Assembly (NCBI GenBank): GCA_963718895.1
Contig: CAVRAG010000008.1
Span: 672,001 to 736,000 of the forward strand
Length of the DNA stretch: 64,000 bases
From: an uncultured Nitrososphaerota archaeon
GTDB lineage: Archaea; Thermoproteota; Nitrososphaeria; Nitrososphaerales; Gagatemarchaeaceae
Direction of reading: 5' to 3'
Part shown: in pieces, positions 3,958-30,243 of the stretch
Layout: every line of letters begins with the position of its first letter
Position numbering within the stretch: the stretch's first letter is position 1
Notes under the pieces: generated by a model
Seen by the model: the letters and a program-made list of their open reading frames with translations, nothing else
What the model was told of the DNA's origin: nothing
The model's database searches: none
Position numbers and translations under genes: made by a program

Positions 3958-4022
3958 GTAAGGTCAGATTGTTTCCGCCCGGCGCCGGTTATTTAAGGGA
4001 AGTGGCGCGAATGAGCTCCCGG

Positions 4023-4125: not shown

Positions 4126-4175
4126 AATCCAGGCCCCTTATAGCCACAAATAGCGGAATTGTTCTGGAATGTGGG

Positions 4176-9057: not shown

Positions 9058-12000
9058 TCAGAAAGCCGAGGGCGCCGGTGATAGGCTGGGCTCGGCGCGC
9101 GGCCCGTTCTTCCTGAGCAGCGCGATGGTCGCGACGACAAGGGCCACGACGATTGCGAGAACGAGCACGTACACCAGGTTGGTCAGGGTCCGGAGGTTGT
9201 TCATCATCGAGCTTATCGTGCTCTGGTCAGAGCTCAGCTGAGAGTTGAGGTTCCCAATCGTGCCGTTCGCCGACGACACCTGGGAGGTCAGGGAACCGAT
9301 GGAGCTGTTGACCATCGCAAGCTTGCCCTCGGAGCTGAAGCCGATTGTCGTCGAGGCAGACATTCCGTCCAGCTGCTCTGCGACGACTCGGAGAGAGTGG
9401 ACGCCCACAGAAAGCGATGCCGAGTCCAGCGGGAACGTGTAGGAGGACGAGCCTCCGCTCAGCGTCGTCAGCTGCTTTCCGTCCAAGAAGACCGACACCG
9501 AGGTGATCTGCTGTCCGGTCACCGTGAGACTCCCCACCGTACCGTTGTAGTTCTCGTTCTGCGCAGGCGACTGGACGGAAATTATAGGGATCGAGGGAGA
9601 GATCTGTAGAACTGTCGAATCGTTCAGAGAGACTGTGGAGGCGGTGAGCTTCAGCGAGCCGAGGGTGGTCTGCTGCACCGACAGCTTGCTGTTCTGGGCG
9701 ACTATCGACCCGCCCGAAACCCCGCTGAGGGTGACGGAGGCGTCACTCAGAATCAGCGTTCCCTCGATCTGTGAGGACGATATGGTGAAAGTCCCGCCCT
9801 CGACCGTGGTCGAACCCAGGAAGAGGTCGCCTGTGAGGGTCTGGGAGCCGGAGATCGTGTCGTTCACGAAGGCGGTCTGGGAGGTCTGAGCGAGGGAAGA
9901 AAGGTGCTGGCCGGCGAGGTACAGGTAGGGCTGCACCACGAGACCCTGCTGGGTCGAGATATCTGTCGACGAGGGAACGCCGTCGGCGGAGAGCCCTGAG
10001 ACGAATATCTCGTACGGGCCGCTCAAGTAGAGCGCCCCTGGGTCTATCGACACCGTCCCGCCCGAGTTGTAAGCCGAGGGGAGGGTCACGTTCCCCGACC
10101 AGAGCCCGGTGACGGCGTCATACCAGAGCGGAACCTGTATGGTCTGGGTGAGTGCGTTGTACGAGTTCTGGAGGTCTTTGGGATAGACGGCGGCCGAGTA
10201 CATTCCGTACTTCACACTGCTCCCGTTCGCGTAGTCTATCTTCGCAGAGACTCCAACCACCTGTCCCTCGAAGAGAGTCGGAGAAGATACCGTGATGCTC
10301 GGGCTGGACTCCGAGGGCCCGACGTAGACTTGGCCGAAGTAGTACCCGTCAATGGTCTTGCCCAGCGTGTACGAGTCGAAGGACGAGCGCATAATGACGT
10401 CGTAGAGGCCTGGCGCTGTGCCGCGAGGAACCGTCAATGCGCCCTGAATTCCTTGGACCGTCGAGAGGAAGCTGTTCTCGTAGATCGGCTCGATCGCCAC
10501 TGTCTTCCCGGACTGGCTGACAAGGGAGACGGTGACGTTCGACCCGACCTCGATGTCATAGTAGACCGGGAGACCAGTCTCCAGCGACAGGACATCAGGT
10601 ACGTTTGCCGGCGCGGCCAAGGTCGCGAGGACGAACAGAGACTGGCCGGGAGCGACGACGCCGGGCTCGGCCAAGACCGAGGTCTCGATGAAGGTCGACT
10701 GCATCCCGACCCCGTTTATGAAAGGCAGGTAGCCGTAGACTCCGTCGTTTCCGCTGAAGACCATGGGGCCATCGGCGTAGGCTCCCAGGAGCGTCCCGCT
10801 CCAGAAGCTCCCGATCGCGCCGCTGGTCTTGCCAGCCAGGGTCGCCGCCTTCGCGTAGGTGTTGGAGGCCAACGAGTACGTGGAGGCGGTGAAACTGAAG
10901 GTGGCAGGACCCGCAGGCGTACCGTCAAGGGCCGTGATGTTCGCGACCAGCAGGATGCCGAACTGCGAGTCGTATGGCGCGTCCGGCGAGGGCGTGGTGA
11001 AGTCTGCCAGATAGCCGGTGAAGACACCCGCGAAGCCGGTCCCGGAGACTCCTCCCGAACTCCCGATCACGGTGATGTACGCAAGCCCTGATGCGTTCTG
11101 CGGGGACACTAGCTGACCAACCCAGGACCCGCTCGAGGAGCTGAACGTGAGAGGGACCTTTGCGAGGGTTCCCGTCAGCGTATCCAGCTCTGCGCTGAAG
11201 CTTCCGGTGGAGACCGCCGATGGCCCACTAGCGACGGTCGCGCTCACGGCGAGGGTCGCTCCCGGCATGACATCGGAAGGAGGAAGACCGTTCTCGGTCA
11301 CGGTGACGTTGACCGCCAGGGCCTTCGTGGAGACCGCGCCGAGGCCGTAGTGTGCCATCTCGCCGATGTTGGGGGCGCCCCAACCCGTCGCCATGTTGTA
11401 GCCTGGTTGCGAGACCCATGGGATGATGTATCCGAACGTGATCGGATGGTAGACCTTCGGGTACACCGAGGGGCTCTGGGCGAGGGCGTAGAGGCTGGGG
11501 TTGATCAGGCCAAGCTCCGATCTGGCCGACGCCATGAGCAGCGTGAGCAGTCCAGCTAGGAGGGGTGAGGCCTCGCTCGTTCCTCCGGACACCTCTGTCA
11601 AGTTTCCGGGGACGACCACGGTCACTCCGGGATAGACGTTGGCGTTGAGCGAGAGGTCGGGAACCTCCCTGCCCTGGGCGAACCCGGAGGGGGCCGTGAG
11701 CCCCGCCTGGTACCACGGCAACGGCTCGAGGTCGCTCACGCCACCCGTTCCTCCTCCGTAGTTTACACCGGCGGGGACGAAGCCGTAGTTCGACCACGCC
11801 GTCTGATCGAAGGACGAGACCCGCGACCCGTCGAACGTCAGGTAGGTCGTCGTCCCGCCGACCGCGACGACATAGGGAGAGGTCGAGGGATAGCCCACCG
11901 TGCCCTCCGGCCCGCCGGCGTATCCGCTGCCTCCGACGTCTCCCGTCGACGAGATGAACGTGATGCCCTCTGCGGAGCCGAGCATGTAGTATTGATCAGT

Positions 12001-13134
12001 CAACACGATGTTGAGGTCGAACGAGCTCGCTGTGACGGAGGAGAGCGTGGACTCTGGGAAGCCGAAACTCTGCGAGAGGTCCCCGACCTTGTCCTGGGCA
12101 ACTATCGCCGCGATCGCCGCTGAGAGCGGGAGCGCGCCGTTGGCGACGTAGAGGTCGATGGTCGCCCCGGGGGCCATCGTGTGGGCGGACTCCACGTCCA
12201 GGCTGATCTCAGGCGCCCATCCCTCCGCTGTGCCCAGGCTAGGGTTGTACGCTTCGATCGGAATGACGTTCAGGGGGGAGTTGGGCAGGCCGTACAGCAG
12301 ATCAAAGTAGGCCAGCTGCTGCGCGATATAGGGATCGCCGTAGAAGTCGAGTATCCCAGCGGTGTAGCCCTTCCCGGTGTCCCCCTTCGAGTAGAGCGAG
12401 GTAGCGTTGTAGACGGACTGGAGGTCCGTCAGAGGGTAGGCCTCACCAGGTGCGGTCTGGTTGCTCTCCGAGGACCTCGAGTCGAGGGCCGAGACCATCT
12501 TCTGCGTCACAAGGTCTGGAGGACGGCTGAGAAGGACGGCGGTAACGTTCGAGGCATCGACGTACGCTCCGGGGATGGGGGAGACGCCGGACGCGCTGTA
12601 GTACGAGCTCGTGCCGTTCGAGTACAGCTCGAATCTCAGACCCATGGTCTGAGACACCTGGGACGCGGTTCCCTCGGCCGTGATGATCGAGTCGAGGCTG
12701 CTGCTCATGACCTTGAGGCCTCGCTGCTCGAGGTAGGCGAGGGCCGCTTCGTATTGCGAGGTGGGCAGGAAACTCTGGACCTGGGCCTGTGAGAGGAACT
12801 GGTGGTAGAGTGGCGAGCCTGGCATGGAGATCTGCTGGGTGAGGTACTCGAGAGACTGCACGTTCTGCAGGGGAATCCCCACGGTCACGATCACCGGAGT
12901 CGAGGGTGAGAGAAGACCCGCAGGTCTGTAGCCCGCGAGGAGGGTAGGCTTAACCTGCGCCGGGATGGGAGCAGACAAGGCTCCGGGGCTCGCCGGCGTG
13001 GCCTCGGCGGAGCCGTGCACCGGAATCGAGACTATCAGGGAGAGCGCGAGAAGGAAGACCACCAGCGACGAGAGGAAGAACGCTCGGAGACGCTTCTCGC
13101 CGGGAGGAATCAACGGCGTTTTGAGCCAGGCCAC
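9058..13134 (-). CDS. Membrane-anchored S53 (sedolisin/kumamolisin-family) protease
   Basis: Signal peptide, pro-domain, EISLD (E-x3-D), STGD, GGTSEASP and YNMATGWG motifs, long beta-rich stalk and C-terminal TM. True start may be TTG at 13113, since the TATA box abuts 13134. Confidence 0.92.
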   Translation of the reverse strand: MAWLKTPLIPPGEKRLRAFFLSSLVVFLLALSLIVSIPVHGSAEATPASPGALSAPIPAQVKPTLLAGYRPAGLLSPSTPVIVTVGIPLQNVQSLEYLTQQISMPGSPLYHQFLSQAQVQSFLPTSQYEAALAYLEQRGLKVMSSSLDSIITAEGTASQVSQTMGLRFELYSNGTSSYYSASGVSPIPGAYVDASNVTAVLLSRPPDLVTQKMVSALDSRSSESNQTAPGEAYPLTDLQSVYNATSLYSKGDTGKGYTAGILDFYGDPYIAQQLAYFDLLYGLPNSPLNVIPIEAYNPSLGTAEGWAPEISLDVESAHTMAPGATIDLYVANGALPLSAAIAAIVAQDKVGDLSQSFGFPESTLSSVTASSFDLNIVLTDQYYMLGSAEGITFISSTGDVGGSGYAGGPEGTVGYPSTSPYVVAVGGTTTYLTFDGSRVSSFDQTAWSNYGFVPAGVNYGGGTGGVSDLEPLPWYQAGLTAPSGFAQGREVPDLSLNANVYPGVTVVVPGNLTEVSGGTSEASPLLAGLLTLLMASARSELGLINPSLYALAQSPSVYPKVYHPITFGYIIPWVSQPGYNMATGWGAPNIGEMAHYGLGAVSTKALAVNVTVTENGLPPSDVMPGATLAVSATVASGPSAVSTGSFSAELDTLTGTLAKVPLTFSSSSGSWVGQLVSPQNASGLAYITVIGSSGGVSGTGFAGVFTGYLADFTTPSPDAPYDSQFGILLVANITALDGTPAGPATFSFTASTYSLASNTYAKAATLAGKTSGAIGSFWSGTLLGAYADGPMVFSGNDGVYGYLPFINGVGMQSTFIETSVLAEPGVVAPGQSLFVLATLAAPANVPDVLSLETGLPVYYDIEVGSNVTVSLVSQSGKTVAIEPIYENSFLSTVQGIQGALTVPRGTAPGLYDVIMRSSFDSYTLGKTIDGYYFGQVYVGPSESSPSITVSSPTLFEGQVVGVSAKIDYANGSSVKYGMYSAAVYPKDLQNSYNALTQTIQVPLWYDAVTGLWSGNVTLPSAYNSGGTVSIDPGALYLSGPYEIFVSGLSADGVPSSTDISTQQGLVVQPYLYLAGQHLSSLAQTSQTAFVNDTISGSQTLTGDLFLGSTTVEGGTFTISSSQIEGTLILSDASVTLSGVSGGSIVAQNSKLSVQQTTLGSLKLTASTVSLNDSTVLQISPSIPIISVQSPAQNENYNGTVGSLTVTGQQITSVSVFLDGKQLTTLSGGSSSYTFPLDSASLSVGVHSLRVVAEQLDGMSASTTIGFSSEGKLAMVNSSIGSLTSQVSSANGTIGNLNSQLSSDQSTISSMMNNLRTLTNLVYVLVLAIVVALVVATIALLRKNGPRAEPSLSPAPSAF

Positions 13135-13203: not shown

Positions 13204-14394
13204 TCACCCGACGGTCGAGATGTCGTATCTGCTCTTCAGAAGCCTACCCGAACTGAACCGGTTCAGCCCGAAGACCGAGACGTCGTAGTCTGAGAACCGC
13301 CCGTCGATGACGAGCGAGGCCATGAGCCTGCCGAACTCGGGACACAGTTTGAACCCGTGCCCGCTGAGACCAACCAGGCAGTGGACTCCCGGATAGCCAT
13401 AGCCGGAGAGCTCGTCGATGATCGGCTGCTGGTCTGGGGTGTTGTCGTAGAGACCGCTGTACCCGCGCTCGTACTTCCCCCTCGACGCCATGACGGGGTA
13501 GAGCCCCGCCGTCCACTCGGAGTACTTCTGGACCTCTTCGAAAGTCACTCCCTCATTGTAATCGTCGGGGTCAGCGGCGGCGCTTGACGCGTCGAGCTGC
13601 GCCTCCATCGACCCGACAAAGAGCAGGTCTCTCCCCTCGGCCTTGCAGTAGGCTGAACGGGTGAAGTCGAAGACGGCTGGACGGGTCCCCTGGAACTCAT
13701 CTGGGCGCCCGAAGATCGCGACGGGGTGCCTGACCGGCTTGATCGGCACCGTAATCCCCAAGGCTTCGAAGATTGGGCCGGACCAGACTCCCGTGGCGAG
13801 CACGACCTTGCGCGCCTGCACCTCGCCGGCGGTCGTTTGGAGCGAGTACCCGTCGCCGGCCTTGCTGACATTGAGCAGGAAGGTCCCCGTCAGCACTCTG
13901 CCTCCGAGGGTAGCGGCCGCCGCCGCGAACGAGCCCGCAGTCGTGGATGGCTCTGCGTAGCCCATGTGCGGCTCGTAGACGACCGAGCTGAAACGGTCGG
14001 TGTCGAGAAGCGGCTCGATGCGCCTGGCCTCCTCCTTGTCCACGAAGTCCGACGTTATCCCCATCCGCCTGAACATCTCGAGGTTCTCGCGCACCAGCCC
14101 CTCCGAGCGTCCATCGACCCCTATCAGCAGCCCCGTCTCCCGGTATCCGGCGGTGTGTCCGGGGAGGACCTCACCGAAATCTCTGAAGAAGCGGTAGCTG
14201 AGCAGTGCCATCTTCGCGACCACGGGGACGCTGTAGTGGGTCCTGACGAGAGCGGTGGATCGGCTGGTCTGTCCGGAGGCGATCCCCGCCCCCCTCTCGA
14301 TCAGGAGAGGGCTAGGCGAGCCTCGCTTGGCGAGGTGATAGAGGATGCTGGATCCGGTGGAACCCCCTCCGATCACGGCGACCTCTGTTCGCAT
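13204..14394 (-). CDS. FAD-dependent oxidoreductase (sarcosine oxidase beta / DAO family)
   Basis: IGGGSTG, GQTSRS, YDNTPDQQPII and GLSGHGFK motifs. Confidence 0.9.
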   Translation of the reverse strand: MRTEVAVIGGGSTGSSILYHLAKRGSPSPLLIERGAGIASGQTSRSTALVRTHYSVPVVAKMALLSYRFFRDFGEVLPGHTAGYRETGLLIGVDGRSEGLVRENLEMFRRMGITSDFVDKEEARRIEPLLDTDRFSSVVYEPHMGYAEPSTTAGSFAAAAATLGGRVLTGTFLLNVSKAGDGYSLQTTAGEVQARKVVLATGVWSGPIFEALGITVPIKPVRHPVAIFGRPDEFQGTRPAVFDFTRSAYCKAEGRDLLFVGSMEAQLDASSAAADPDDYNEGVTFEEVQKYSEWTAGLYPVMASRGKYERGYSGLYDNTPDQQPIIDELSGYGYPGVHCLVGLSGHGFKLCPEFGRLMASLVIDGRFSDYDVSVFGLNRFSSGRLLKSRYDISTVG

Positions 14395-14404
14395 GCGAGT
14401 CGCT

Positions 14405-15208
14405 CTAGGCGGGTATCGAGGCGGCTCTTGTCTGGTTGAAGATGTCGGAGGCTTCTTTGACGGTTGCGCCCTCGTGGACCAGGGACCTGACCCCCTTTAT
14501 CATCGCGACCGGGTGGTCGTTCTGCCAGATGTTCCTTCCCATGTCGACGCCGATTGCTCCCGCCTGGAGAGCGTCGTATGTGAGCTGGAACGCGTCCACC
14601 TCGGTGTTGAGTTTGGGACCGCCTGCGACGACAAGTGGAACGGGGCAGCCTTCGACCACTTTTGAGAATCCTTCGCAGTAGTACGTCTTGACGATGTGGG
14701 CGCCTATCTCGGCCGCTATCCTGCAGGCGAGGCCCAGGTACCTCGCGTCCCTCTTTTCGAGCTCCTTCCCCACGGCGGTGATCGCGACGACCGGCATCCC
14801 ACGTTCCTCTCCTTCGTCGACAAGCTTAGCGAGGTTCAGGAGGGTCTGCCTCTCGTGGGCGGTTCCGACGAAGATCGAGATCGAGACAGCAGAGGCGTTC
14901 AATCGCAGGGCGTCCTTCATCCGCACGGTTAGTCCCTCGTCGCTGAGGTCGTTCTGGAGCACGCTCGTGCCTCCGGAGACGCGGAGAAGTATGGGGACCT
15001 CCCAGGTGGGGTCGACCGACGTCCTGAGGACGCCCCTGGTGACCGAGAGCGCGTCGGCGTACGGTACGAGGGGCTCGAAGGTCCTCCGGGGGACCTCGAG
15101 CTTGCGCGTCGGACCCATGAAGTAGCCGTGATCGCAGGCGAGCATTACGGTCCGGCCGTCGGAAGGCTTGATCATCCGGGCAAGCCTGTTCTTTAGACCC
15201 CAGTCCAT
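14405..15208 (-). CDS. lsrF: LsrF-like 3-hydroxy-5-phosphonooxypentane-2,4-dione thiolase
   Basis: MDWGLKNRLAR...TVMLACDHGYFMGPT, RIAAEIGAHIVKTYY and AGGPK...GVDMGRNIWQ match the LsrF subfamily of class I aldolases. Confidence 0.88.
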   Translation of the reverse strand: MDWGLKNRLARMIKPSDGRTVMLACDHGYFMGPTRKLEVPRRTFEPLVPYADALSVTRGVLRTSVDPTWEVPILLRVSGGTSVLQNDLSDEGLTVRMKDALRLNASAVSISIFVGTAHERQTLLNLAKLVDEGEERGMPVVAITAVGKELEKRDARYLGLACRIAAEIGAHIVKTYYCEGFSKVVEGCPVPLVVAGGPKLNTEVDAFQLTYDALQAGAIGVDMGRNIWQNDHPVAMIKGVRSLVHEGATVKEASDIFNQTRAASIPA

Positions 15209-15307
15209 CTCTCCAATTACACCCTGGATGCGTTTCCAACGAGTACGTGATATACGTTATGCTTCTCCCATCAACGTTTAAAAAACCGCGGCAGAGAATT
15301 CGAAGCC

Positions 15308-15808
15308 ATGGCAGGGGCCAGAGCGAAGGTTCCACCGGGCATGAAGATCACCCAGGTGGCTGTCGTCGCCAAGGATCTGAGGAAGACGATGGAGAACTAC
15401 CACAGGGTCATGGGATGGAGGCCGTGGAGCGTCTACGAGCACAAGCCTCCGGTGCTCCATCATACCGAGGTGAGGGGAAAGCCCGTCCGCTACACCATGC
15501 TGGGCGCGGAGGTCCACTGCGACCCCATCGACTTTGAGATCCTGCAGCCGGTCGAGGGCCCGAGCATATACAAGGAGTTCCTCAGGGAGAAGGGAGAGGG
15601 CCTACACCACGTCTCGGTCGTGAACCCCGCCGAGGACGTCCACAGGGCTCTCTTGGAATTCAAGAAGGACGGGATAGAGGTCCTGATGAGCGGGAGGCTC
15701 GAGGGCATCGAGTTCTACTACATGGACACGGAACCAGTCCTGAAGATGGTCGCGGAGACGGTCAGCGGCCACGCGATCTCGCTAAAGCCGAGCTATACGT
15801 ATCCCTAG
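15308..15808 (+). CDS. VOC/glyoxalase-family protein (methylmalonyl-CoA epimerase-like fold)
   Basis: QVAVV...FEILQPVEGPSIYKEFLREKGEGLHHVS motif. Confidence 0.85.
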   Translation: MAGARAKVPPGMKITQVAVVAKDLRKTMENYHRVMGWRPWSVYEHKPPVLHHTEVRGKPVRYTMLGAEVHCDPIDFEILQPVEGPSIYKEFLREKGEGLHHVSVVNPAEDVHRALLEFKKDGIEVLMSGRLEGIEFYYMDTEPVLKMVAETVSGHAISLKPSYTYP

Positions 15809-17373
15809 GTCCCGGCGGCGCGCCAGAGCGGTCTCACGAGGCCTTCGTCCACCATGGCCAGGGATCGCTCATAGACCTCGAGCCAGTTTGAGTAGAGGCC
15901 CCGGTAGAGCTCGTAGTTCGTGCGTGAGGGCTCGATCTTCTTCTCGGTTTTTGCGAGGCCGACCGCGGCCTCCTGCACGTCACCGTACCATCCTGCGCCT
16001 TTCCCGGCGCAGATCGCGGTCCCCAACGAGGTGCTCTCTTTGACGACCGGAATCTTCACCTCGACACCCAGGACGTCCGAGACGACCTGCGGCCATAGGC
16101 TCCCCTTGGAAGCGCCTCCCGTTAGGGTGACCTGCCGCGTGCGACCCCTAGTAATCTCCTCTATGATATTCAGGTGGCCCAGGGCCACGTAGGCCGCGGC
16201 CTCCTCGATGGCGCGGACGCACTCCTTCTTGCCCGATCGGCTCGGGTTGCCGACGTCGAACTGCATCAGAGCAGGGGAGGCGTGAATCCAGCGCTTTGAG
16301 TTCATCATGTTGGAGAAGATACCCAGTACGCCCTCCGAGCCAGGCGGGACCGAGCGCGCCGAGTCCTCCATTATGGTGTAGGCGTCGGTCCCGTGGCGCC
16401 TCGCCTCCTCCTTCTCGCTCTGGCAGAACCCGTCCCTGAACCACCTCATCGTCAGGCCGCAGTAGAAGCCTATCCCTTCCATCATCCACTGTCCCGGGAT
16501 AGCGTGGCAGAGGGTCCTGAGCCTCATCTTCCGGTCTATCCGCGCCGTGTCCATCAGCACCGTCGTCTGCCAGAAGCTTCCTCCCACTATCGTGATTCTG
16601 TTCGGACCGCCCGCGCCTATCCCGACGAGCCCCATCTGGGTGTCCCCGCCCCCTGTGACGACGGGAGTCCCAGGGGCCAGGCCGGTCTCGAGGGCTGCCT
16701 TAGGCGTGACTGCGCCAATCTCGTTCCCCGACTCGACCACCTCCGGGAAGATGTCTCTTTCAAGGCTGCAGAGTTCGGCTATCGCGGGAGACCATCTTCT
16801 CCGCTTAAGGTCGAACATCGCCGAGCTCGAGCCCACCGAAGGGTCGGTCACGAACCGACCCGAGAGCCGATAAAGTATCCAGTCACTCAGCATTCCCATG
16901 TGCGCGACCTTCCTGAAGATCTCGGGCCTGTTTCGCTGGATCCAGAGGAACCTCGGAGGGGCGGTTATCGAGACCCAGTCTCCGCTCTCAAAGTAGATCT
17001 TCTCGGCCGCGCCGTCCCTGACCATCATGCGGGCCTCCTCCAAGGCACGGGAATCGACGTTCGGACAGGCCCAGATCTCCCTGCCCCTGGCGTCGTAGAG
17101 GACCATGCCCTCCCTCATACTGCTTGCGCTCACGGCGCCGATCTGAGAAGGTTCAATCGACCCCGCGAACAGCGCCTCCCTGATGCAGTGTGAGATAAGC
17201 TTCCAGTTCCGTCTTGTCTCGAAGACCTGGGACCCCGGAACCCCGGGCACCGGCCGGTGGGTCCACTCGTGCTGTGCTATCGAGAGCTGGTGGCCCAGTC
17301 TGTCGAAGACCGTCGCCCGGCAGCTTCCCGTCCCCGCGTCTATCGCCATTACGTACTGCGGCAAACACGTCAC
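15805..17373 (-). CDS. lsrK: LsrK-like autoinducer-2 (DPD) kinase, FGGY family
   Basis: MAIDAGTGSCR, SSMREGMVLYD...IWACPNVDSRA, GGGDTQ, GGSFWQ, MRWFRDGFCQSEK, GGASKGSLWPQ and C-terminal LWRAAG, all characteristic of LsrK. Confidence 0.85.
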   Translation of the reverse strand: MTCLPQYVMAIDAGTGSCRATVFDRLGHQLSIAQHEWTHRPVPGVPGSQVFETRRNWKLISHCIREALFAGSIEPSQIGAVSASSMREGMVLYDARGREIWACPNVDSRALEEARMMVRDGAAEKIYFESGDWVSITAPPRFLWIQRNRPEIFRKVAHMGMLSDWILYRLSGRFVTDPSVGSSSAMFDLKRRRWSPAIAELCSLERDIFPEVVESGNEIGAVTPKAALETGLAPGTPVVTGGGDTQMGLVGIGAGGPNRITIVGGSFWQTTVLMDTARIDRKMRLRTLCHAIPGQWMMEGIGFYCGLTMRWFRDGFCQSEKEEARRHGTDAYTIMEDSARSVPPGSEGVLGIFSNMMNSKRWIHASPALMQFDVGNPSRSGKKECVRAIEEAAAYVALGHLNIIEEITRGRTRQVTLTGGASKGSLWPQVVSDVLGVEVKIPVVKESTSLGTAICAGKGAGWYGDVQEAAVGLAKTEKKIEPSRTNYELYRGLYSNWLEVYERSLAMVDEGLVRPLWRAAGT

Positions 17374-18413
17374 CTCAGGGTCTCGGGGTTGACGACTGTC
17401 TCGAGCGGTTCGCCCTCCAGGTATCGCTCCACCTGCTTCGCGACTATCATGGCACCCTTGGTCGTTGTCTCGAAGGTCGCCCCGCCGATGTGGGGCATGA
17501 CTATGGTGTTGTCCATCTCGATGAGCGGGTTGACCGGCCTCGACGGGTCATAGCGGACCACGTCCATCCCGGCGCCGGCAAGTCGACCCTCCCTGAGCGC
17601 AGAGCACAGGGCCCCCTCATCCACCATGCTGGGCCTGGAGGTGTTGATGAAGAAGGCCCCTCGCTTCATCATCGAGAACTGTCCCGATCCCATGAGGTTC
17701 TCGTTCTCCTTCGACTCCCGCGCATGAAGGGATACAAAGTCGGACCTTGTGAGCACCTCCTCGAGGCCGGCGACACGCACGCCTTCGGACTCGATCTTCG
17801 ACCTGTCGACGTAGGGGTCGTAGACCAGCACCGCCATCCCGAACCCTATGGCCCGCTTGGCTACCCGGGAGCCGACCCTGCCGAACCCGATCAGACCGAG
17901 TGTCTTCCCATCCAGCTCGTGCCCGAAGAACTGGTTCCCCTCGTAGTTGTCTTTCCCCGCAACCCGGGTCGTTCTCACATGCGTATAGGCGCGGACGAGG
18001 TTCCGAGAGAGCATGACCATGAGGGCGACGGTGAGCTCCGCCACTGCCTCGGCGTTCTTCCCCGGAGCGGTGATGACCGGGATGCGCCTCGCGCTGGCTG
18101 CCGCCACGTCGACGTTCACGGGTCCACCGCGGGCGCAGCAGAGTACCTTCAGGTTCCTTCCTGCGGCGAGGACCTCCTCCGAGACCGGCGCGCCGTGCAC
18201 GACGAGGACCTCGGCGTCACCAACCTCCGAGATGAGCTGGCGGTTGGATCCGAGATACTCTCGCAACGACTTCTCGGAGGCGCTCCCAGGCACGAGCTTC
18301 TCGTCCTCGTCGAGTTTCAGGAACCTGACCTCGTTGGCCTTCGCTATCCCCTCGAAAGCCTCCCTGAAGTAGTCCAGCGTGATGAAGCTGTCCCCGACGA
18401 TGAGCATCCTCAA
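17370..18413 (-). CDS. D-isomer-specific 2-hydroxyacid dehydrogenase
   Basis: ARGGPVNVD, PGKNAEAVAE, GFGRVG, INTSR and PHIGG motifs; 4-nt overlap with lsrK. Confidence 0.9.
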   Translation of the reverse strand: MRMLIVGDSFITLDYFREAFEGIAKANEVRFLKLDEDEKLVPGSASEKSLREYLGSNRQLISEVGDAEVLVVHGAPVSEEVLAAGRNLKVLCCARGGPVNVDVAAASARRIPVITAPGKNAEAVAELTVALMVMLSRNLVRAYTHVRTTRVAGKDNYEGNQFFGHELDGKTLGLIGFGRVGSRVAKRAIGFGMAVLVYDPYVDRSKIESEGVRVAGLEEVLTRSDFVSLHARESKENENLMGSGQFSMMKRGAFFINTSRPSMVDEGALCSALREGRLAGAGMDVVRYDPSRPVNPLIEMDNTIVMPHIGGATFETTTKGAMIVAKQVERYLEGEPLETVVNPETLR

Positions 18414-18419
18414 GGAGCC

Positions 18420-19175
18420 TTACCTCATCCCCCTGCCGCCGGCGACTGTGAGCACTTCTCCCGTTATCCAGTCGGCTTCGTCTGAAGCGAGGAAGGTCGC
18501 GGCGGCTGCCGTGTCGTAGGTTCTGCCCAGCCGCTTGAGGAAGGTCTCGCCCGCTATGAGGAGCTTCGTCTCCTGTGGCATCGAGGCGAGTATGTCAGTC
18601 TCCGTCGTTCCGGGGCAAATCGCGTTCACTGTGATCTCGGGTCCGAGCCTGACCGCGAGCGACCGGGTAAGCCCGATCATCCCGGCCTTTGACGAGACGT
18701 AGTCAGGATATCTCAGGGCCGAGGGCTGCGCGAGGGCCGAGACAGAGGAGATGTTGATGATCTTCCCCTTCTTCTGGGTGAGCATGAGGGGCGCGACCTC
18801 CCTGCAGCACAGGTAGGCTCCCTTGAGGTTCACGTCCAGCACGCGGTCCCAGTCCTCGTCCGTCGAGTCGAGGAAGTCCTTCGCGACTAATACCCCGGCG
18901 TTGTTGACCAGTATATCCACTCGACCGAACTTCCCGACGGTCTTGGAGACCATCCGCTTGACCTCGGGCGACTTCGAGACGTCAGCCTTCACGAGCAGAG
19001 ATCTGCCGCCTTCTCTCTTGATCTCCTCTACGACGTTCTTCGCCTCCTCCTCGGAGCTCCGGTAGTTCACCACCACCCTCGCACCCTCGGAGGCGTACAT
19101 TCTCGCGATCGCTGCGCCGATCCCCTTACTTGCGCCCGTCACTATAGCCACCTTTCCCCTGAGACGCTGCGCCAT
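18420..19175 (-). CDS. SDR (FabG-like) oxidoreductase A
   Basis: TGASKGIG, NNAG and YVSSK motifs; ATG at 19175 lies about 30 nt below a TATATTA box. Confidence 0.9.
   Translation of the reverse strand: MAQRLRGKVAIVTGASKGIGAAIARMYASEGARVVVNYRSSEEEAKNVVEEIKREGGRSLLVKADVSKSPEVKRMVSKTVGKFGRVDILVNNAGVLVAKDFLDSTDEDWDRVLDVNLKGAYLCCREVAPLMLTQKKGKIINISSVSALAQPSALRYPDYVSSKAGMIGLTRSLAVRLGPEITVNAICPGTTETDILASMPQETKLLIAGETFLKRLGRTYDTAAAATFLASDEADWITGEVLTVAGGRGMR
18745..18830. repeat. 86-bp perfect inverted repeat, copy 1
   Basis: Reverse complement is identical to 21319-21404 (checked base by base). Confidence 0.95.
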
Positions 19176-19223
19176 GGCTGCTCGGCCCACGCGGCAGATG
19201 CCCGTAATATAGGTTCAGACCGA

Positions 19224-20813
19224 TTACTCTGGCGGAATCTCTTGGAGGACCGCGCCTAGGTTGATGCCCTTGCCCTTGAAGTAGTAGTACCTGGCGACGT
19301 AGATGATTATGCCAGACCCGAAGATGGTCGCGAGGAGGGCGTCAGCGGCAGGGGTAGCAGGCCCGATAGCCGGGGTCGTGACCGCGAAGTAGAGGGTTAT
19401 CGCCATTGCGACGACCGAGAGAAACCCGAATATCTGGAGCACGCGGGGACCACCGGAAAGTCCCTTTGCCAGCTCCTTCCTCCGAATGGGGAAGACTATG
19501 GCAGATATCCCGACTATAATCCAGACGATCGACCAGATGGTGGTGGTGTTGAGGACCTGCCCGATGTAGCTCGTGTACGCGGTGAAGGCCACGAGGATGG
19601 CTCCAACTACAAGCGTGAGTATCGTGGCCTTGATCGGGATGTGCAACCTCTCGTTGATGTCCGCGAAGGTCGAGGGGAGTATCCTGTCGAAGGAGAACGC
19701 GAAGACGTACCTCGAGGCGCTCAGGACTAGTCCGCATGCCCACCAGGGGAAGAACACCAGGAACGAGAACTGAACGAAGGTCGCTAGGTACGCGTTCCCC
19801 AGAATCGCCGGTACAAAGACGGCCAGCCAGGGGGCGACACCGAGGGAGAGTTGGCCCGAACCGAAGAGCGAGAACGCGGCCTGATTGAACGGGTAGGAGA
19901 GCATGCGCATGGCGAAGAAGAGGCCGACAATGTCGATGATCGCGCATATCGCGAGCGCAATCACGACACCCCAGAGCATGCTGTACTTCGCGTTCTTGAC
20001 CTCACCCGAGATGTAGACCGAGTAGTTGAATCCGTTGAAGAGAAGGACCCCGAAGGGGATGCTGAGAAGAGTCGCGCTGGTCGTGATGGGGAGATAGGGG
20101 AAGTTGTTGCTCGCAGCCGCGGACAACACGCCGTTGTAGGTCACGCTCGGAGCGCCCGATGTGCCACTGAAGAAGTTCGTGAAGTCGGTTGCGAACGAGG
20201 CGTTGGACGTCCCTATCACGAACGCGAGCATTATGAAGGTCCCGAGGAAGACTATAATCGCCAAGGTTATCATGACCTTGCTGTAGATCTTCGCGCCCAG
20301 GCTCGTTATGATGACACCGAAAATTACCACCCCTAGCATCCCCGACAGGAAGACGTTGTTGGGGGTAACGAAACTTGTGGCCCAGTTGATCAACCCCACG
20401 TTGTGCCAGGTGTAACCCATCGTGAGCGCGAAGTCGGGTACTACGACCGAACCCCAGGCGCCCGCGCCGCCCGAGAGCAGCGCGACGAAGGACAGCCACA
20501 TAGCCCATCCCGCGACGAAGCCGACGCTCGGGTGAAGACTTCTGCCCATCCAGATGTAGTCGCCTCCGGAGCGAGGCATCTGAGTGGCAAAGATGTAGTA
20601 CATTATCCCGAGCGGGACCATGAAGAGGACGCCGATGATCGCGGAGATGGTGAACTCGGCTCCAGGGTCGGACGGTGCGATGTAGCCAATCTGGGAAGCG
20701 ATTCCGAAGTACGTGGGACCGGTGACGGCGAGACTTACGATGAGAGCGTCGTACCAGCTGAATGACCTTACTAGACCAGTAGCGTCCCGCATGAAAGCGG
20801 ACTTGCTAGCCAA
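19224..20813 (-). CDS. APC-family amino acid/amine permease
   Basis: FMRDATGLVR N-terminus, MPRSGGDYIW, RYVFAFSFDRILP, C-terminal EIPPE; about 12 or more TMs. Confidence 0.9.
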   Translation of the reverse strand: MASKSAFMRDATGLVRSFSWYDALIVSLAVTGPTYFGIASQIGYIAPSDPGAEFTISAIIGVLFMVPLGIMYYIFATQMPRSGGDYIWMGRSLHPSVGFVAGWAMWLSFVALLSGGAGAWGSVVVPDFALTMGYTWHNVGLINWATSFVTPNNVFLSGMLGVVIFGVIITSLGAKIYSKVMITLAIIVFLGTFIMLAFVIGTSNASFATDFTNFFSGTSGAPSVTYNGVLSAAASNNFPYLPITTSATLLSIPFGVLLFNGFNYSVYISGEVKNAKYSMLWGVVIALAICAIIDIVGLFFAMRMLSYPFNQAAFSLFGSGQLSLGVAPWLAVFVPAILGNAYLATFVQFSFLVFFPWWACGLVLSASRYVFAFSFDRILPSTFADINERLHIPIKATILTLVVGAILVAFTAYTSYIGQVLNTTTIWSIVWIIVGISAIVFPIRRKELAKGLSGGPRVLQIFGFLSVVAMAITLYFAVTTPAIGPATPAADALLATIFGSGIIIYVARYYYFKGKGINLGAVLQEIPPE

Positions 20814-20976
20814 TATGAGTTCACCTCTGGGTTAAGTTTACTATTTAACCTTTGAAAACCCAGGGATTCATCCAGCTTTTGTATCTTTTCATCTCTTAAC
20901 CTCTTAGTTCTTGTCGTATTTCCGGTCAGGTTCGCCGGTAGGGACAAGGCTTTAGGGGCCTCGAGAGAAAGCGGCT

Positions 20977-21729
20977 GTGATGCGCCTAAATGGCAGGGTA
21001 ACGATAGTGACGGGAGCTTCTCGAGGAATCGGCAGGGCGATCGCAAAACGCTTCGCCAAGGAAGGCGCGAAGGTCGTGATAAATTACAACCACTCCAGGT
21101 CCCAGGCAGCGAAGCTTCTCAGGGAGATACAGGGCGCGGGAGGCGAGGCGATCATAGTCAAGGCTGACGTCTCCAACCCCCGCGACGTCAAGAGGCTCGT
21201 GAAGAAAGCAGTTGAGGCTTACGGGCGGGTCGACGTGCTGGTCAACAACGCGGGAGTCTTGTTCCAAGAGACTTTCCTCGACGCGCCGGAAGACGTCTGG
21301 GACAAGACGATTGACATCAACCTCAAGGGAGCCTACCTGTGCTGCAGGGAGGTCGCGCCCCTCATGCTCACCCAGAAGAAGGGGAAGATCATCAACATCT
21401 CCTCGAACTCCGGAGCGTATCACCCTTCGGCGATGAGGCTTGTGGAGTACACCACCTCGAAGGCAGGAATGAACGGGCTGACCAAGGCCCTCGCTCTGAA
21501 GCTGGGACCGTACGTCACCGTCAATGCGATCCTACCCGGCAGGATAGAGACGGACATGACCGCCGGAGTCTCCCCGGAGTCTTCGAGGGCCGTCGTGGAC
21601 GAGACGCCCCTGAAGAGGTTGGGTACGCCCGACGAGGTGGCGAACGCCGCCGTTTACCTCGCTTCGGACGATTCGGACTTCGTTACGGGCGAACTGCATA
21701 TGGTCACCGGTGGCCGAGGCATGCACTGA
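20977..21729 (+). CDS. SDR (FabG-like) oxidoreductase B
   Basis: TGASRGIG, NNAG and YTTSK motifs. Confidence 0.92.
   Translation: MMRLNGRVTIVTGASRGIGRAIAKRFAKEGAKVVINYNHSRSQAAKLLREIQGAGGEAIIVKADVSNPRDVKRLVKKAVEAYGRVDVLVNNAGVLFQETFLDAPEDVWDKTIDINLKGAYLCCREVAPLMLTQKKGKIINISSNSGAYHPSAMRLVEYTTSKAGMNGLTKALALKLGPYVTVNAILPGRIETDMTAGVSPESSRAVVDETPLKRLGTPDEVANAAVYLASDDSDFVTGELHMVTGGRGMH
21319..21404. repeat. 86-bp perfect inverted repeat, copy 2
   Basis: Identical to the reverse complement of 18745-18830. Confidence 0.95.
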
Positions 21730-21791: not shown

Positions 21792-22778
21792 ATGTCTGTC
21801 TCAAGACGGCGCAAAGACCGCGCGATACCCGCGGAAGAAAAAGTCAATGCACCGATGACCGAGGCCGAGTTCGACCAGCTCTTTCACGACGTCTCGAACT
21901 GGGGCCGCTGGGGCGAAGCGGACGAGAGGGGGACCCTCAACTACCTGACCCCCGAACACGTGAAGAACGCCGCCTCGCTGGTCCGCTCAGGTCGGTCCAT
22001 CTCGCTGTCGAGGGAGGTCGACTCGGTTCCGGAGGTCGACAACCCTAATCCGGCGATTCACCTTATGATCAGGGGCTACGACGTTCCCGCGAGCGGTGGC
22101 GAACCACAGTTCGTCTCAGACTACCTCGGTTGCGGCTGCCACGGGAATGCCCACTCTCACGTTGATGCGCTCTGCCACGTCGCCTACAAGGGGAGGCTCT
22201 ACAACAACAGACCGCTCAGCACTGTGACCACCCAGGGTGCGAACGCCATGGACATCACGACCTACGCCAACGGGATCGTGGGCCGGGGAGTACTCCTGGA
22301 CATACCGAAGGTGAGAGGGACCAGGTGGCTGGAACCTGGCGACGCGGTCACATCAGAGGACCTACTGGCCGCGGAACACAAGCAGGGGGTGCGCCTCGGC
22401 GAGGGAGACATCTTCGTGTTTCGCGTCGGCCATCCTCTGCGTCGTAAGGAGGTCGGGCCCTGGAACATCGAACACGGGGGCCAAGGCAGGGCGGGTCTCC
22501 ACCCGACGGCGATGCGCCTTCTGCACGAACGGAAGATAGCGGCGTTCCTCCCGGACGGGGACGGTGAGACCGTTCCGAGCAATGTCACGGGCGTGCTCCA
22601 TCCAGTCCACGCGCTTCAGATCGGCGCAATGGGCCTGGCGTGCGGCGACAGCCTGCAGTTCGAGGAGCTTGCAAAGGTCTGCGAGGAGGAGAGACGGTGG
22701 GAGTTCATGGTCACCCTCGCGCCGCTAAGGCTGCCCCACGGGACAGGCTCTCTCGTCAACCCGATCGCGATATTCTGA
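21792..22778 (+). CDS. Cyclase-family (kynurenine formamidase-like) metal-dependent hydrolase
   Basis: NWGRWG..DERGTLN, HGNAHSHVDALCH, GRGVLLD and GTGSLVNPIA motifs. Confidence 0.88.
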   Translation: MSVSRRRKDRAIPAEEKVNAPMTEAEFDQLFHDVSNWGRWGEADERGTLNYLTPEHVKNAASLVRSGRSISLSREVDSVPEVDNPNPAIHLMIRGYDVPASGGEPQFVSDYLGCGCHGNAHSHVDALCHVAYKGRLYNNRPLSTVTTQGANAMDITTYANGIVGRGVLLDIPKVRGTRWLEPGDAVTSEDLLAAEHKQGVRLGEGDIFVFRVGHPLRRKEVGPWNIEHGGQGRAGLHPTAMRLLHERKIAAFLPDGDGETVPSNVTGVLHPVHALQIGAMGLACGDSLQFEELAKVCEEERRWEFMVTLAPLRLPHGTGSLVNPIAIF

Positions 22779-22839: not shown

Positions 22840-23928
22840 ATGAACATCGACGAGCTACCTACTCCGGCGGTCGTCATCGACCTCGACGCGGTCGAGCGGA
22901 ACATCAAGAAGATGCAGGACTTTGTGAACTCGAGGGGTTGCGGCGTCAGGCCGCACGCCAAGTCGCACAAGAGTCCGTTCATCGCGAGGAAGCAGATGGA
23001 CGCTGGCGCCGTGGGCCAGTGCTGCCAGACGATAGTCGAGGCGGAGGCGTTGATGCTGAACGGGATTGACCACGTGCTCCTCACGACCAACCTGGCGAGC
23101 CAGGGTTCCATCGAGAGGTTCCTAAACCTCGGCAGGAACGGGGACATCAAGATCATAGTAGACGGAAAGGAGAACGCTGAGATGCTCGCCAGGGCTGCCC
23201 GGCACAGAGGGATGACAGCGGACGTGGTGGTCGACCTGGACGTTGGGGGGAACAAGACGGGACAGCAGCCCGGGGAACCGGCCGCGAGGTTCGCCAAGTG
23301 GATAATCGAGACGGACGGACTGCGCTTCAGAGGAATCCAGGGGTACGAGGGGCACCTACAGATCAGCACGCCAGACTTTGAGGAGAGGAAGACCAAGACC
23401 ATGGAGGCGCTCGGGAAGATCACGGCTACCATCGAGGCGCTCAAGGCGCTCGGGATCACCCCTGAGATAGTCACCTGCGGCGGGACCGGGACCTACAACA
23501 TCTCCGCGGGATATCCTGGCGTGACGGACATCCAGCCTGGTTCGTACATCTATATGGACCGGCGGTACGGAGAGATTGGGTCTGCCGGGACAGACTTCGA
23601 GAAATCGATGTCCGTCGTCGCCACGGTCATCAGCGCCCCCACCCCAACCAGGGCGGTGACCGATCTGGGCTGGAAAGGAGTCGGCATCGAGTACGAGGCA
23701 ATCGGGTTCGGAGGAATGCCCACCCCGCTGCTCCCGGGCCTCAAGTACAGTCCCGGGGGCGACGAGCACGGGATCCTCACAGCGCAGGAGCCCAGATATC
23801 GGCCGAACGTCGGCGACAGGGTGAGGTTCCTACCCGCACACTGTGACACTACGCTGAACCTCTACGGATTCTTCTACGGGGTCAGGGGAGACAGGGTAGA
23901 GGTCGTCGGCCCTGTCGCCCGACGCTGA
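22840..23928 (+). CDS. DSD1-family PLP enzyme (D-threonine aldolase / D-serine dehydratase-like)
   Basis: LPTPAVVID, RPHAKSHK (PLP Lys), YEGH, GGTGT, QPGSY, DEHG and HCDTT motifs. Confidence 0.9.
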   Translation: MNIDELPTPAVVIDLDAVERNIKKMQDFVNSRGCGVRPHAKSHKSPFIARKQMDAGAVGQCCQTIVEAEALMLNGIDHVLLTTNLASQGSIERFLNLGRNGDIKIIVDGKENAEMLARAARHRGMTADVVVDLDVGGNKTGQQPGEPAARFAKWIIETDGLRFRGIQGYEGHLQISTPDFEERKTKTMEALGKITATIEALKALGITPEIVTCGGTGTYNISAGYPGVTDIQPGSYIYMDRRYGEIGSAGTDFEKSMSVVATVISAPTPTRAVTDLGWKGVGIEYEAIGFGGMPTPLLPGLKYSPGGDEHGILTAQEPRYRPNVGDRVRFLPAHCDTTLNLYGFFYGVRGDRVEVVGPVARR

Positions 23929-25669: not shown

Positions 25670-25738
25670 GGGCAGGGCCGCACGCCCGCGGGAGACTGGA
25701 AAAAAGGATAAGGCCCGCCCCCTGCAGGCGTTCAGAAA

Positions 25739-26644: not shown

Positions 26645-26679
26645 AGAACTTTAAGTGACTTTCGGGAGCTTGCTCGGCC

Positions 26680-27201: not shown

Positions 27202-27250
27202 CGGGCGGGTTCAGGAAGCCTTATGCGGACCCGGGAGGCGCCAGGCCCGT

Positions 27251-30218: not shown

Positions 30219-30243
30219 ATTGTTCCTATAACACCACGCCAAC

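Follow-up and report, generated by a model that had tools for sequence, protein, structure and literature searches.

Homologues of LsrK and LsrF in a candidate catabolic gene cluster of a Nitrososphaerales archaeon

The kinase LsrK and the thiolase LsrF are known together from the Lsr systems of Escherichia coli and Salmonella, which act on autoinducer-2 (AI-2), i.e. 4,5-dihydroxy-2,3-pentanedione (DPD). According to the excerpted text of PMC8016206, phosphorylated DPD (P-DPD) is converted in E. coli to dihydroxyacetone phosphate (DHAP) plus acetyl-CoA: LsrG isomerises it, LsrF transfers its acetyl group to CoA and no redox step is needed. The present work concerns a locus encoding homologues of both proteins in an uncultured peat-soil Nitrososphaerota archaeon of the Gagatemarchaeaceae (Nitrososphaerales). 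The window, i.e. the whole stretch of 64,000 nucleotides that was analysed, corresponds to positions 672,001 to 736,000 of contig CAVRAG010000008.1 (assembly GCA_963718895.1). An earlier, sequence-only reading of this DNA had proposed that the archaeon scavenges AI-2, which would amount to cross-domain quorum quenching, or that two dehydrogenases feed a reduced precursor into a new sugar route. The evidence favours the second idea: family membership and key residues of the kinase and the thiolase agree with AI-2 scavenging, whereas the clade of the kinase, the missing LsrB and LuxS and the surrounding gene set do not. We hold, with about even confidence, that the locus is a laterally acquired archaeal copy of a widespread and so far undescribed catabolic cluster of soil and peat microbes, which would degrade a DPD-like deoxy-ketopentose. 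Its role may be nutritional and not signalling, AI-2 being a possible side substrate. This reading draws on the families to which the proteins belong, their conserved residues, the linkage of the genes, phylogeny and distribution, from which we infer all substrates and the order of the reactions.

Like the Lsr system of E. coli and Salmonella, the window encodes a homologous kinase (43% identical to E. coli LsrK) and a homologous thiolase (50% identical to E. coli LsrF), both above the cut-offs of their family models, with identical catalytic residues in LsrF and a nearly identical kinase pocket; the end products, DHAP and acetyl-CoA, are probably shared too. Unlike that system, it is devoid of LsrACDB, LsrR and LsrG, its kinase carries Thr254 and branches outside the classical clade, its LsrF is devoid of the swap arm, an APC permease replaces the ABC system and the cluster includes two additional genes, encoding a phosphoglycerate-dehydrogenase-like D-2-hydroxyacid dehydrogenase (HADH) and a VOC-fold protein; furthermore, its hosts lack LuxS. 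The classical lsr operons found outside enterobacteria (L027, L109-L111 and L113-L117) resemble the window in encoding LsrK and LsrF with no ABM/LsrG gene nearby. However, all nine carry LsrB, LsrACD and an LsrR-type regulator, none carries VOC or HADH, and LuxS is present in four of the five genomes tested.

Placement of the kinase and the thiolase

With the model NF008187 ("autoinducer-2 kinase"), whose equivalog cut-off is 528, the kinase scored 625.3 bits, and 624.8 bits in the genome search, the next model being XylB (209 bits). Among solved structures, its best match was E. coli LsrK (5ya0, 478.7 bits), followed by glycerol kinase (138.5 bits). The aldolase reached 381.3 bits against NF006081, "3-hydroxy-5-phosphonooxypentane-2,4-dione thiolase" (cut-off 297), and 383.4 bits in the genome search, ahead of the next model (ADH synthase, 196 bits); it is the only one of the five DhnA-type matches of the genome that exceeds the LsrF cut-off, and its best solved relative is E. 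coli LsrF (3gkf, 269.8 bits), followed by MJ0400 (150.4 bits). The family assignments of the sequence-only reading therefore hold for both proteins at the level of NCBIfam equivalogs.

The excerpted text of PMC8016206 gives T21, S91, M92, R93, D253, V254, F276, Q278, E308 and I310 as the predicted DPD site of LsrK, derived from homology models for want of a ligand complex. In our alignment, nine of these ten residues are identical in the kinase of the window, the exception being V254T. Position 254, which adjoins the catalytic Asp253, separates the 105 aligned kinases sharply: it is Thr in 90/90 non-classical members and Val, Ala or Cys in 13/13 rows of the classical clade. Arg93, Phe276, Gln278 and Glu308 are found family-wide and differ in two outgroups. 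The pocket would thus suit a substrate of the same kind that differs in one polar feature.

Kinase phylogeny was reconstructed twice. In the first tree (105 rows, LG+G4, after removal of the short or interrupted rows L009, L103, L033, L102, L107 and L105), the classical kinases (E. coli, Bacillaceae, Clostridia, Vecturithrix and three Campylobacterota) form a single 13-row clade on a branch of 0.4, with a Shimodaira-Hasegawa-like approximate likelihood ratio test (SH-aLRT) support of 100; the kinase of the window lies outside it, in a clade of six Nitrososphaerales rows (SH-aLRT 95). In the second, a quick tree of 48 rows (LG+C20 PMSF), the classical clade again has a support of 100, on a branch of 0.72, and the kinase of the window belongs to a separate clade of 26 VOC/HADH-linked kinases (SH-aLRT 98), the kinases from Bathyarchaeia occupying two other positions. 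The sequence-only reading had named branching outside the LsrK and LsrF clades as an outcome that would speak against AI-2 scavenging; since both trees put the kinase outside the clade of the lsrACDB/lsrR operons, this outcome was found in part, for the kinase. Within the Nitrososphaerales clade, kinases are 60-83% identical to one another and have therefore probably resided there for a long time.

Two other kinase genes deserve mention. A genome of the same genus carries an LsrK homologue with an internal TGA (G436:C104:28492-29766; 509 bits, below the cut-off), which may reflect decay of the gene or a fault in the assembly. The Bathyarchaeota locus L048 encodes, 5 kb from its LsrK-like gene and beside a DhaK gene, a second FGGY kinase (3647-5119, minus strand) that is 29% identical to the kinase of the window.

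The excerpted text of PMC2728841 lists ten key residues of E. coli LsrF (Asp57, His58, Lys203, Tyr205, Gly226, Gly227, Asp251, Met252, Gly253 and Arg254), among which Lys203 forms the Schiff base and His58, Gly226, Gly227, Gly253 and Arg254 bind phosphate. All ten catalytic and phosphate-binding residues are kept in the protein of the window, and Asp57, His58, Lys203, Gly226, Gly227, Asp251, Gly253 and Arg254 also in every intact archaeal or bacterial variant aligned. With E. coli LsrF, the bacterial variants share 59-64% identity, and they retain its N-terminal arm. The archaeal ones begin at E. coli residue 33/34 and therefore lack this arm of about 32 residues; in the window, an in-frame stop lies 18 codons upstream of the start. 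In the E. coli decamer, the arm is domain-swapped.

In the LsrF tree (72 rows; L023, L014, L068, L100, L104 and L072 dropped), the family is set apart from its paralogues by a branch of 1.62 substitutions per site (SH-aLRT 99). Inside it, a polytomy joins the Bacillaceae classical proteins (four rows), a Nitrososphaerales clade (seven rows, SH-aLRT 99), L103 and a clade of 57 rows comprising six classical LsrFs from E. coli and Clostridia and 51 bacterial variant LsrFs. From this tree, the archaeal LsrF appears to be a family member bracketed by proteins of classical operons. Its assignment by the sequence-only reading thus stood as regards the family, and its position within the family is that of one branch in a polytomy with two classical-operon groups. 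Two Solirubrobacterales loci (L049 and L071) each encode a second, very divergent LsrF-like paralogue; this pair lies outside the LsrF family on a branch of 2.0 substitutions per site.

Gene set, missing Lsr partners and distribution

A total of 111 related loci, a locus found by the genome search (L039) and the E. coli operon were collected. The queries run against each of them were the proteins of the window, the Lsr proteins of E. coli and four further ones from L016. The variant side was defined as all non-classical loci with a kinase match (n = 96, including the window and loci with short flanks); the outgroups L035 and L036, the Campylobacterota loci L028-L030 and L037, which has no kinase match, were left out. 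Fifty-four variant-side loci have at least 8 kb on both sides. These full-flank loci carry genes for VOC (n = 48), HADH (n = 48), SDR (short-chain dehydrogenase/reductase; n = 46), LsrF (n = 41), a D-threonine-aldolase-like protein (n = 39), an APC permease (n = 34), an RPE-like epimerase (n = 29), a SorC regulator (n = 29), a cyclase-family protein (n = 25), DUF4432 (n = 19), LsrACD-like proteins (n = 7), DAO (n = 3) and LsrB (n = 1), and none carries LsrG. By comparison, LsrB, LsrACD, an LsrR-type regulator and LsrF are each present in all 10 classical loci and VOC and HADH in none. HADH lies directly upstream of the kinase gene, on the same strand, in 72/77 occurrences, and LsrF directly downstream of it in 51/67. 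Regulators of the GntR/UTRA type are found in 13 variant loci. DAO is present in 6/96 variant-side loci, all from Nitrososphaerales, and is an archaeal-only addition to the cluster.

The bacterial arrangement is illustrated by L016, from Limnocylindria, in which a divergent SorC regulator is followed by VOC, HADH, kinase, LsrF, RPE, a pyridoxal-phosphate (PLP) enzyme, SDR, cyclase, SDR, APC permease and DUF4432 genes that read as one operon. L032, from Solirubrobacteraceae, carries the same set in another order, and varied orders are found across Chloroflexota, Actinomycetota, Dormibacterota, Acidobacteriota and Nitrososphaerales. The recurrence of the same set in different orders across phyla argues for a functional unit.

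Some loci depart from this scheme. L031 (Roseovarius sp. MMSF_3281, a cultured strain) and L112 (a Proteobacteria metagenome-assembled genome, MAG) carry VOC, HADH, a Thr254 kinase, a sugar ABC transporter and a SorC regulator, with no LsrF within 10 kb, and look like hybrids of the two locus types. In five loci, including L015 (3898-5181) and L060 from Bathyarchaeia, an apiosidase-like glycoside hydrolase gene (PF13204, 179 bits) is found near the kinase gene, which hints at a link with the breakdown of plant-wall pentoses.

In the window, the open reading frame (ORF) map and scans against Pfam and NCBIfam gave the following features:

13204-14394, minus strand: DAO-family FAD oxidase, sarcosine/glycine-oxidase-like (Pfam DAO, 194.8 bits)
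14405-15208, minus strand: LsrF-family class I (Schiff-base) aldolase-fold enzyme of 267 aa, presumed CoA-dependent thiolase (NF006081, 381.3 bits)
15209-15307, no strand: divergent lsrF/VOC intergenic region with AT-rich TATA-like elements
15308-15808, plus strand: VOC-fold, methylmalonyl-CoA-epimerase-like protein, convergent with the kinase gene (Pfam Glyoxalase_4, 38.6 bits)
15805-17373, minus strand: LsrK-family FGGY kinase of 522 aa, non-classical (Thr254) clade (NF008187, 625.3 bits)
17370-18413, minus strand: D-2-hydroxyacid dehydrogenase (HADH), phosphoglycerate-dehydrogenase-like (Pfam 2-Hacid_dh_C, 180 bits)
18420-19190, minus strand: SDR-family oxidoreductase (Pfam adh_short_C2, 218.7 bits; NF005559, glucose-1-dehydrogenase subfamily, 249 bits, cut-off 215)
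19224-20813, minus strand: APC-superfamily permease, first gene of the minus-strand run (Pfam AA_permease_2, 93 bits)
20977-21729, plus strand: second SDR, opening the divergent plus-strand run (Pfam adh_short_C2, 225.5 bits)
21792-22778, plus strand: cyclase-family (PF04199) metal-hydrolase-like protein (Pfam Cyclase, 51.9 bits)
22840-23928, plus strand: PLP enzyme, D-threonine aldolase/D-serine dehydratase of fold-type III (Pfam Ala_racemase_N and D-ser_dehydrat)
23941-24783, plus strand: luciferase-like (F420-type) oxidoreductase (TIGR03619, 163.6 bits, just below the cut-off of 166.9)
24785-25669, plus strand: xylose-isomerase-like TIM-barrel protein (Pfam AP_endonuc_2, 137 bits)

The positions and identities of the lsrF and lsrK genes agree with those of the sequence-only reading, as do the SDR-HADH-lsrK run, which actually starts farther upstream with the permease gene, and the DAO gene 10 bases after lsrF; the VOC gene between lsrF and lsrK was absent from it. 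The HADH stop overlaps the lsrK start by four bases. Whether the luciferase-like oxidoreductase and the TIM barrel belong to the cluster is uncertain: they are syntenic in L007 and L008 and are found in 8 and 6 of the 54 full-flank loci, respectively.

Several of these proteins have informative relatives. The best solved relatives of HADH are D-3-phosphoglycerate dehydrogenases (1wwk, 176 bits), enzymes that oxidise a hydroxyl adjoining CH2-O-phosphate. The VOC protein has a mean column identity of 65% over 43 sequences, in which Gln16, Glu77, Glu150 and His155 never vary and His101 hardly does. Foldseek searches with its AF2 model (pLDDT 91.3) retrieved 3gm5 and methylmalonyl-CoA epimerases best, then HPPD and glyoxalase I. 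As modelled, this is probably a metal-dependent, enolate-forming scaffold, and the protein could possibly be an enediol(ate) isomerase or epimerase that stands in for LsrG. The PLP enzyme is closest to the D-threonine aldolase 7dib (246 bits), the DAO enzyme to 1y56_B, "sarcosine oxidase" (102 bits), MSOX and glycine oxidase, and the cyclase-family protein has the uncharacterised 5ibz as its sole solved relative. Orthologues of the APC permease, the proposed importer, occupy the same position in L007, L008, L034 and L040 (75-83% identity), whereas the APC permease counted in 34 of the 54 full-flank loci, like that of L016, is not orthologous to it; the second SDR has orthologues of about 60% identity in Limnocylindria loci.

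The sequence-only reading had reported that lsrG, lsrR and lsrACDB are missing from the window, which was confirmed by searches with the E. coli proteins LsrA, LsrB, LsrC, LsrD, LsrG and LsrR. The check that it had suggested for lsrG, lsrB, lsrR and luxS over the whole genome gave the same picture: LuxS, ABM (the LsrG fold), the SorC sugar-binding domain PF04198 (LsrR) and Peripla_BP_4 (LsrB) were all missing from the 3.13-Mb genome, which is 80.5% complete, so that absence is not proven. The same searches were positive in 4 to 12 of 14 control genomes. With the LsrK profile, the control E. coli genome was matched below the cut-off, although E. coli K-12 has lsrK; either this strain lacks lsr or the match was lost at the first-look step of the search, and negatives for long families need care.

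The weight that the sequence-only reading had put on the missing lsrG must be reduced. In five of five classical loci outside enterobacteria, the 10 kb around lsrK are free of ABM genes, and two of the five genomes are devoid of the ABM domain altogether; the lack of lsrG is therefore weak evidence, and we dropped it as an argument. When the collected loci were searched by tblastn with E. coli LsrG, weak matches only were obtained, in two Campylobacterota loci. LuxS was found in 0/5 bacterial and 0/5 archaeal carriers of the variant, versus 4/5 genomes with classical loci. The SorC-type regulator of L016 scored 122 bits against the LsrR model (cut-off 486).

In archaea, the kinase is rare and its distribution patchy. 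It was found in 2 of the 401 sampled genomes of the phylum, G000 included. Within the family, 9/97 genomes match at E <= 1e-100, eight of them above the cut-off; by genus, it is present in 7/22 genomes of the genus of the window plus G000, in 1/55 of the largest other genus and in 0/19 of eight further genera. This patchiness agrees with lateral acquisition, as does the way in which the kinases of Nitrososphaerales and of Bathyarchaeia are scattered among their bacterial relatives. The nearest homologues are encoded by Nitrososphaerota MAGs (62-86% identity), and one related locus is titled Candidatus Gagatemarchaeum. In public records, these proteins go under the name "autoinducer-2 kinase", with entries from Thaumarchaeota, Bathyarchaeia, Chloroflexota and Actinomycetota. 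A literature search covering titles and the beginnings of abstracts retrieved nothing on archaeal LsrK/LsrF homologues or on this variant cluster, and the words autoinducer, quorum and kinase do not occur in the main text of the Gagatemarchaeaceae genomics paper PMC10640624.

Candidate pathway and rival explanations

The remaining ORFs of the collected loci, clustered de novo and then family-scanned, revealed a second back-end. A class II aldolase-family protein, which obtains its best score as an L-ribulose-5-phosphate 4-epimerase (187 bits, below the cut-off of 251), is encoded in 18 loci, triose-phosphate isomerase in 16, RpiB in 15, DhaK in 14 and DhaL in 12. Genes for E1 alpha, E1 beta and E2 of the pyruvate dehydrogenase (PDH)/acetoin type are present in 12/96 variant-side loci, half of which (6 of 12) lack both HADH and LsrF. 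In L041, L048, L054 and L093, the kinase gene is accompanied by the ribulose-5-phosphate-4-epimerase-like gene and by E1/E2 genes. In L048, APC permease, VOC, class II aldolase, kinase, E1 alpha, E1 beta and E2 genes follow each other on one strand, and L054, from the cultured Pseudogracilibacillus sp. SO30301A, has a similar E1/E2 set with an ABC system. The idea that the class II aldolase simply replaces LsrF was rejected, LsrF being present in 12/17 loci with this aldolase.

This sister version joins the same kinase clade to parts known from two sources, the AraB/AraD and FucK/FucA routes and the E1-E2 components of acetoin and pyruvate dehydrogenases, and would be an alternative way from a methyl-ketol to acetyl-CoA and triose phosphate. 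The window differs from it by the lack of the class II epimerase and of E1/E2 and by the presence of HADH and LsrF. In titles and abstract openings, literature searches found no characterised member of the E1/E2 version. Both back-ends thus pair the kinase with (i) a pentulose-phosphate epimerase, (ii) one oxidation and (iii) an acyl-CoA-forming C-C cleavage. This set would meet the needs of a methyl-ketone pentulose phosphate at the ketol level, which go beyond those of DPD itself.

DPD is, chemically, 1-deoxy-pentosone. The kinase is tied to a dehydrogenase or, instead, to a lipoyl-dependent oxidative complex, which suggests a substrate one reduction level below DPD. In the proposed pathway, the APC permease would import a DPD-like C5 keto-sugar, most likely a 1-deoxy-ketopentose at that level, whose terminal hydroxyl would be phosphorylated by the LsrK-like kinase. 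HADH would then oxidise the C4 hydroxyl beside the phosphate ester, giving 3-hydroxy-2,4-pentanedione 5-phosphate (P-HPD, the substrate of LsrF) or a close analogue. The VOC protein, which both versions share, could contribute enediolate chemistry, either epimerisation at C3 or the shift from 2,3-dione to 2,4-dione that is the job of LsrG in E. coli, and LsrF would finally move the acetyl end to CoA, releasing DHAP and acetyl-CoA. In the E1/E2 route, the ketol would be cleaved into an acetyl unit and glyceraldehyde 3-phosphate, so that both routes would yield acetyl-CoA, triose phosphate and reducing equivalents. Upstream of these steps, the SDRs, the PLP enzyme, the cyclase-family protein and the archaeal DAO may free the sugar from a precursor, possibly one bearing an amino acid. 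These enzymes, like the permeases of the amino-acid type, are a hint that the sugar may arrive attached to, or alongside, an amino compound, with no specific candidate supported. The whole cluster would have entered one genus of the Gagatemarchaeaceae by lateral transfer.

One known system with a comparable layout is the frl operon of E. coli, which acts on Amadori compounds and encodes the APC permease FrlA, the TIM-barrel epimerase FrlC, the kinase FrlD and the GntR regulator FrlR. In the variant loci, too, a permease of the APC type and a kinase are found with a TIM barrel resembling xylose isomerase and with GntR regulators, a likeness that is an analogy of layout only. By contrast, FrlA and the permease of the window share 23% identity (E 8e-7), FrlC matches the TIM barrel at E 6e-5, the frl kinase belongs to the PfkB family and the present one to FGGY, and no match of the FrlB deglycase type was found. 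The DAO enzyme has 39 solved relatives, none of which is an amadoriase. The E. coli Frl proteins matching at superfamily level only, an Amadori/frl link was set aside and is kept as an idea of low probability.

Several points weigh against the deoxy-ketopentose reading. The kinase pocket is almost identical to that of E. coli LsrK, so that the enzyme could in truth act on DPD itself. The genomes that carry the loci are related, which means that the loci are not independent, and neighbouring genes served in part to define the groups compared. Two components of the bacterial versions, the RPE-like epimerase and the SorC regulator, are missing from the archaeal cluster, as is the N-terminal arm from its LsrF. 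The kinase tree is rooted on two very long outgroups, so that the nesting of classical kinases within the variant ones is not established. A separate, co-localised pathway might account for the PLP aldolase, the cyclase, the SDRs and DAO. Finally, nothing in this evidence identifies a natural source of 1-deoxy-ketopentoses in peat.

Genuine AI-2 scavenging would mean that DPD from LuxS-positive neighbours is taken up, phosphorylated, isomerised by the VOC protein or spontaneously and cleaved by LsrF, the signal being both eaten and quenched. Both equivalog cut-offs are passed, 9/10 predicted pocket residues and 10/10 LsrF residues are conserved, LsrF falls among the proteins of classical operons, LsrG seems dispensable (no ABM within 10 kb in 5/5 non-enterobacterial classical loci) and the VOC fold, judging from the chemistry of its superfamily, would be suited to chelating a vicinal dicarbonyl. 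We nevertheless consider this explanation unlikely: the kinase is not a member of the lsrACDB/lsrR-linked clade and shares a clade-wide V254T, no LsrB-type receptor was found in the genome and no LsrA/B/C/D homologue near the locus, HADH is joined to the kinase in 72/77 cases while DPD catabolism needs no redox step, and the E1/E2 back-end should be unworkable on a 2,3-dione; moreover, the sampled carriers lack LuxS and the cluster includes many extra catabolic genes. A substrate of an unrelated kind, for instance a sugar acid or amino-sugar acid, appears even less probable. In this case, HADH would make a 2-oxo acid, VOC would shift the keto group, the kinase would phosphorylate the product and the LsrF homologue would be a Schiff-base decarboxylase or aldolase giving DHAP without CoA, a logic parallel to that of tetronate catabolism (OtnK/OtnI/OtnC). 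Enzymes of the HADH family normally act on 2-hydroxy acids, the class II aldolase gene found in 18 loci directly follows the kinase gene in L092, L093 and L103, DhaK/DhaL, triose-phosphate isomerase and RpiB recur nearby, and both a PLP enzyme for D-beta-hydroxy-amino acids and amino-acid permeases are linked to the cluster. Two scores also point this way, each below the cut-off of its model: 82 bits for the class II aldolase against the 3-oxo-tetronate-4-phosphate decarboxylase model (cut-off 250) and 152 bits for RpiB against the D-erythrulose-4-phosphate isomerase model (cut-off 240). Against such a substrate stand the best score of the class II aldolase, which is that as ribulose-5-phosphate 4-epimerase (187 bits), the full conservation of the LsrF residues with E. 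coli, including Asp251, the 59-64% identity of bacterial variant LsrFs to E. coli LsrF, the conserved family-specific kinase pocket and the co-presence of LsrF in 12/17 loci with the class II aldolase.

It is very improbable that the locus is an artefact or a relic, i.e. bacterial DNA in a chimeric MAG contig or a recently transferred, decaying and unused cluster. The source MAG (3.13 Mb, 80.5% complete, with the window on a contig longer than 736 kb) has an estimated contamination of 5.4%, the cluster is patchy in the family and the G436 kinase gene is interrupted by a TGA. However, the gene order, including a flanking S53 sedolisin-like gene and an SDR, is kept in L007, L008, L009, L034 and L040, from independent Nitrososphaerales MAGs of separate records; since this order recurs with archaeal flanks, a chimeric join at the locus, one of the outcomes that the sequence-only reading had named as speaking against it, is very unlikely and was rejected. 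GC content is even throughout the region, a thermosome gene (28551-30242, 795 bits in the family scan of the window) lies 9 kb from the cluster, the ORFs are intact with conserved active sites, and the 60-83% kinase identity in the archaeal clade points to long residence. The archaeal context recognised by the sequence-only reading is thus borne out by the thermosome gene, the Nitrososphaerota relatives of the kinase and the synteny in five other MAGs.

If the deoxy-ketopentose reading is correct, the cluster would constitute a new pathway from a deoxy-ketopentose to DHAP and acetyl-CoA and would provide a candidate non-homologous replacement of LsrG, residue 254 serving as a one-residue marker separating signalling-linked from catabolic kinases. 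The label "autoinducer-2 kinase" seems too specific for a large clade marked by Thr254, whose members have conserved partners of their own; taken literally, it would imply widespread sensing or quenching of AI-2 in soils and in archaea. For soil Thaumarchaeota that do not oxidise ammonia, the cluster would be a laterally acquired route to organic carbon. It also bears on the origin of the Lsr system. A bolder proposal, which we regard as improbable, is that most of the "AI-2 kinase/thiolase" diversity, in two archaeal phyla and many soil bacteria, is no quorum-sensing device and serves the catabolism of DPD-type 1-deoxy-pentose dicarbonyls and ketols, with a metal-dependent VOC protein in place of LsrG; the enterobacterial Lsr system would then be a late specialisation, and peat archaea would degrade AI-2 incidentally and across domains. 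Such 1-deoxy-pentose substrates may be abiotic sugar-breakdown or Maillard products, possibly bound to amino acids.

Promoter-like elements and flanking genes

The intergenic region 15209-15307 carries TTTAAA-type and TATATC-type elements that are conserved in L040, L009 and L007 and resemble the consensus only. More widely, TATA-like elements of the TTTAAA, TATATC and GGTTAAATA types in 15209-15307 and in 20814-20976 are conserved at matching places in L007, L008, L009 and L040. By this resemblance to the consensus, these AT-rich elements would fit archaeal promoters for three transcription units. An operator shared by the two divergent promoter regions was looked for and rejected: they have no 9- or 10-base word in common, just AT-rich TATA-like elements.

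Beyond the plus-strand run, on its 3' side, the ORFs 25666-26340, 26655-27314 and 27223-28350 (plus strand) have no match in Pfam or NCBIfam, and some of them may be spurious high-GC frames. On the other side, a gene on the minus strand (9058-13134) encodes a protein of 1358 aa with a pro-kumamolisin activation domain of the S53 sedolisin type and no second recognised domain. The excerpted text of PMC10640624, the Gagatemarchaeaceae paper, describes S53 peptidases as acid-active secreted enzymes. This sedolisin-type gene adjoins the cluster in five archaeal MAGs, with 58-78% identity.

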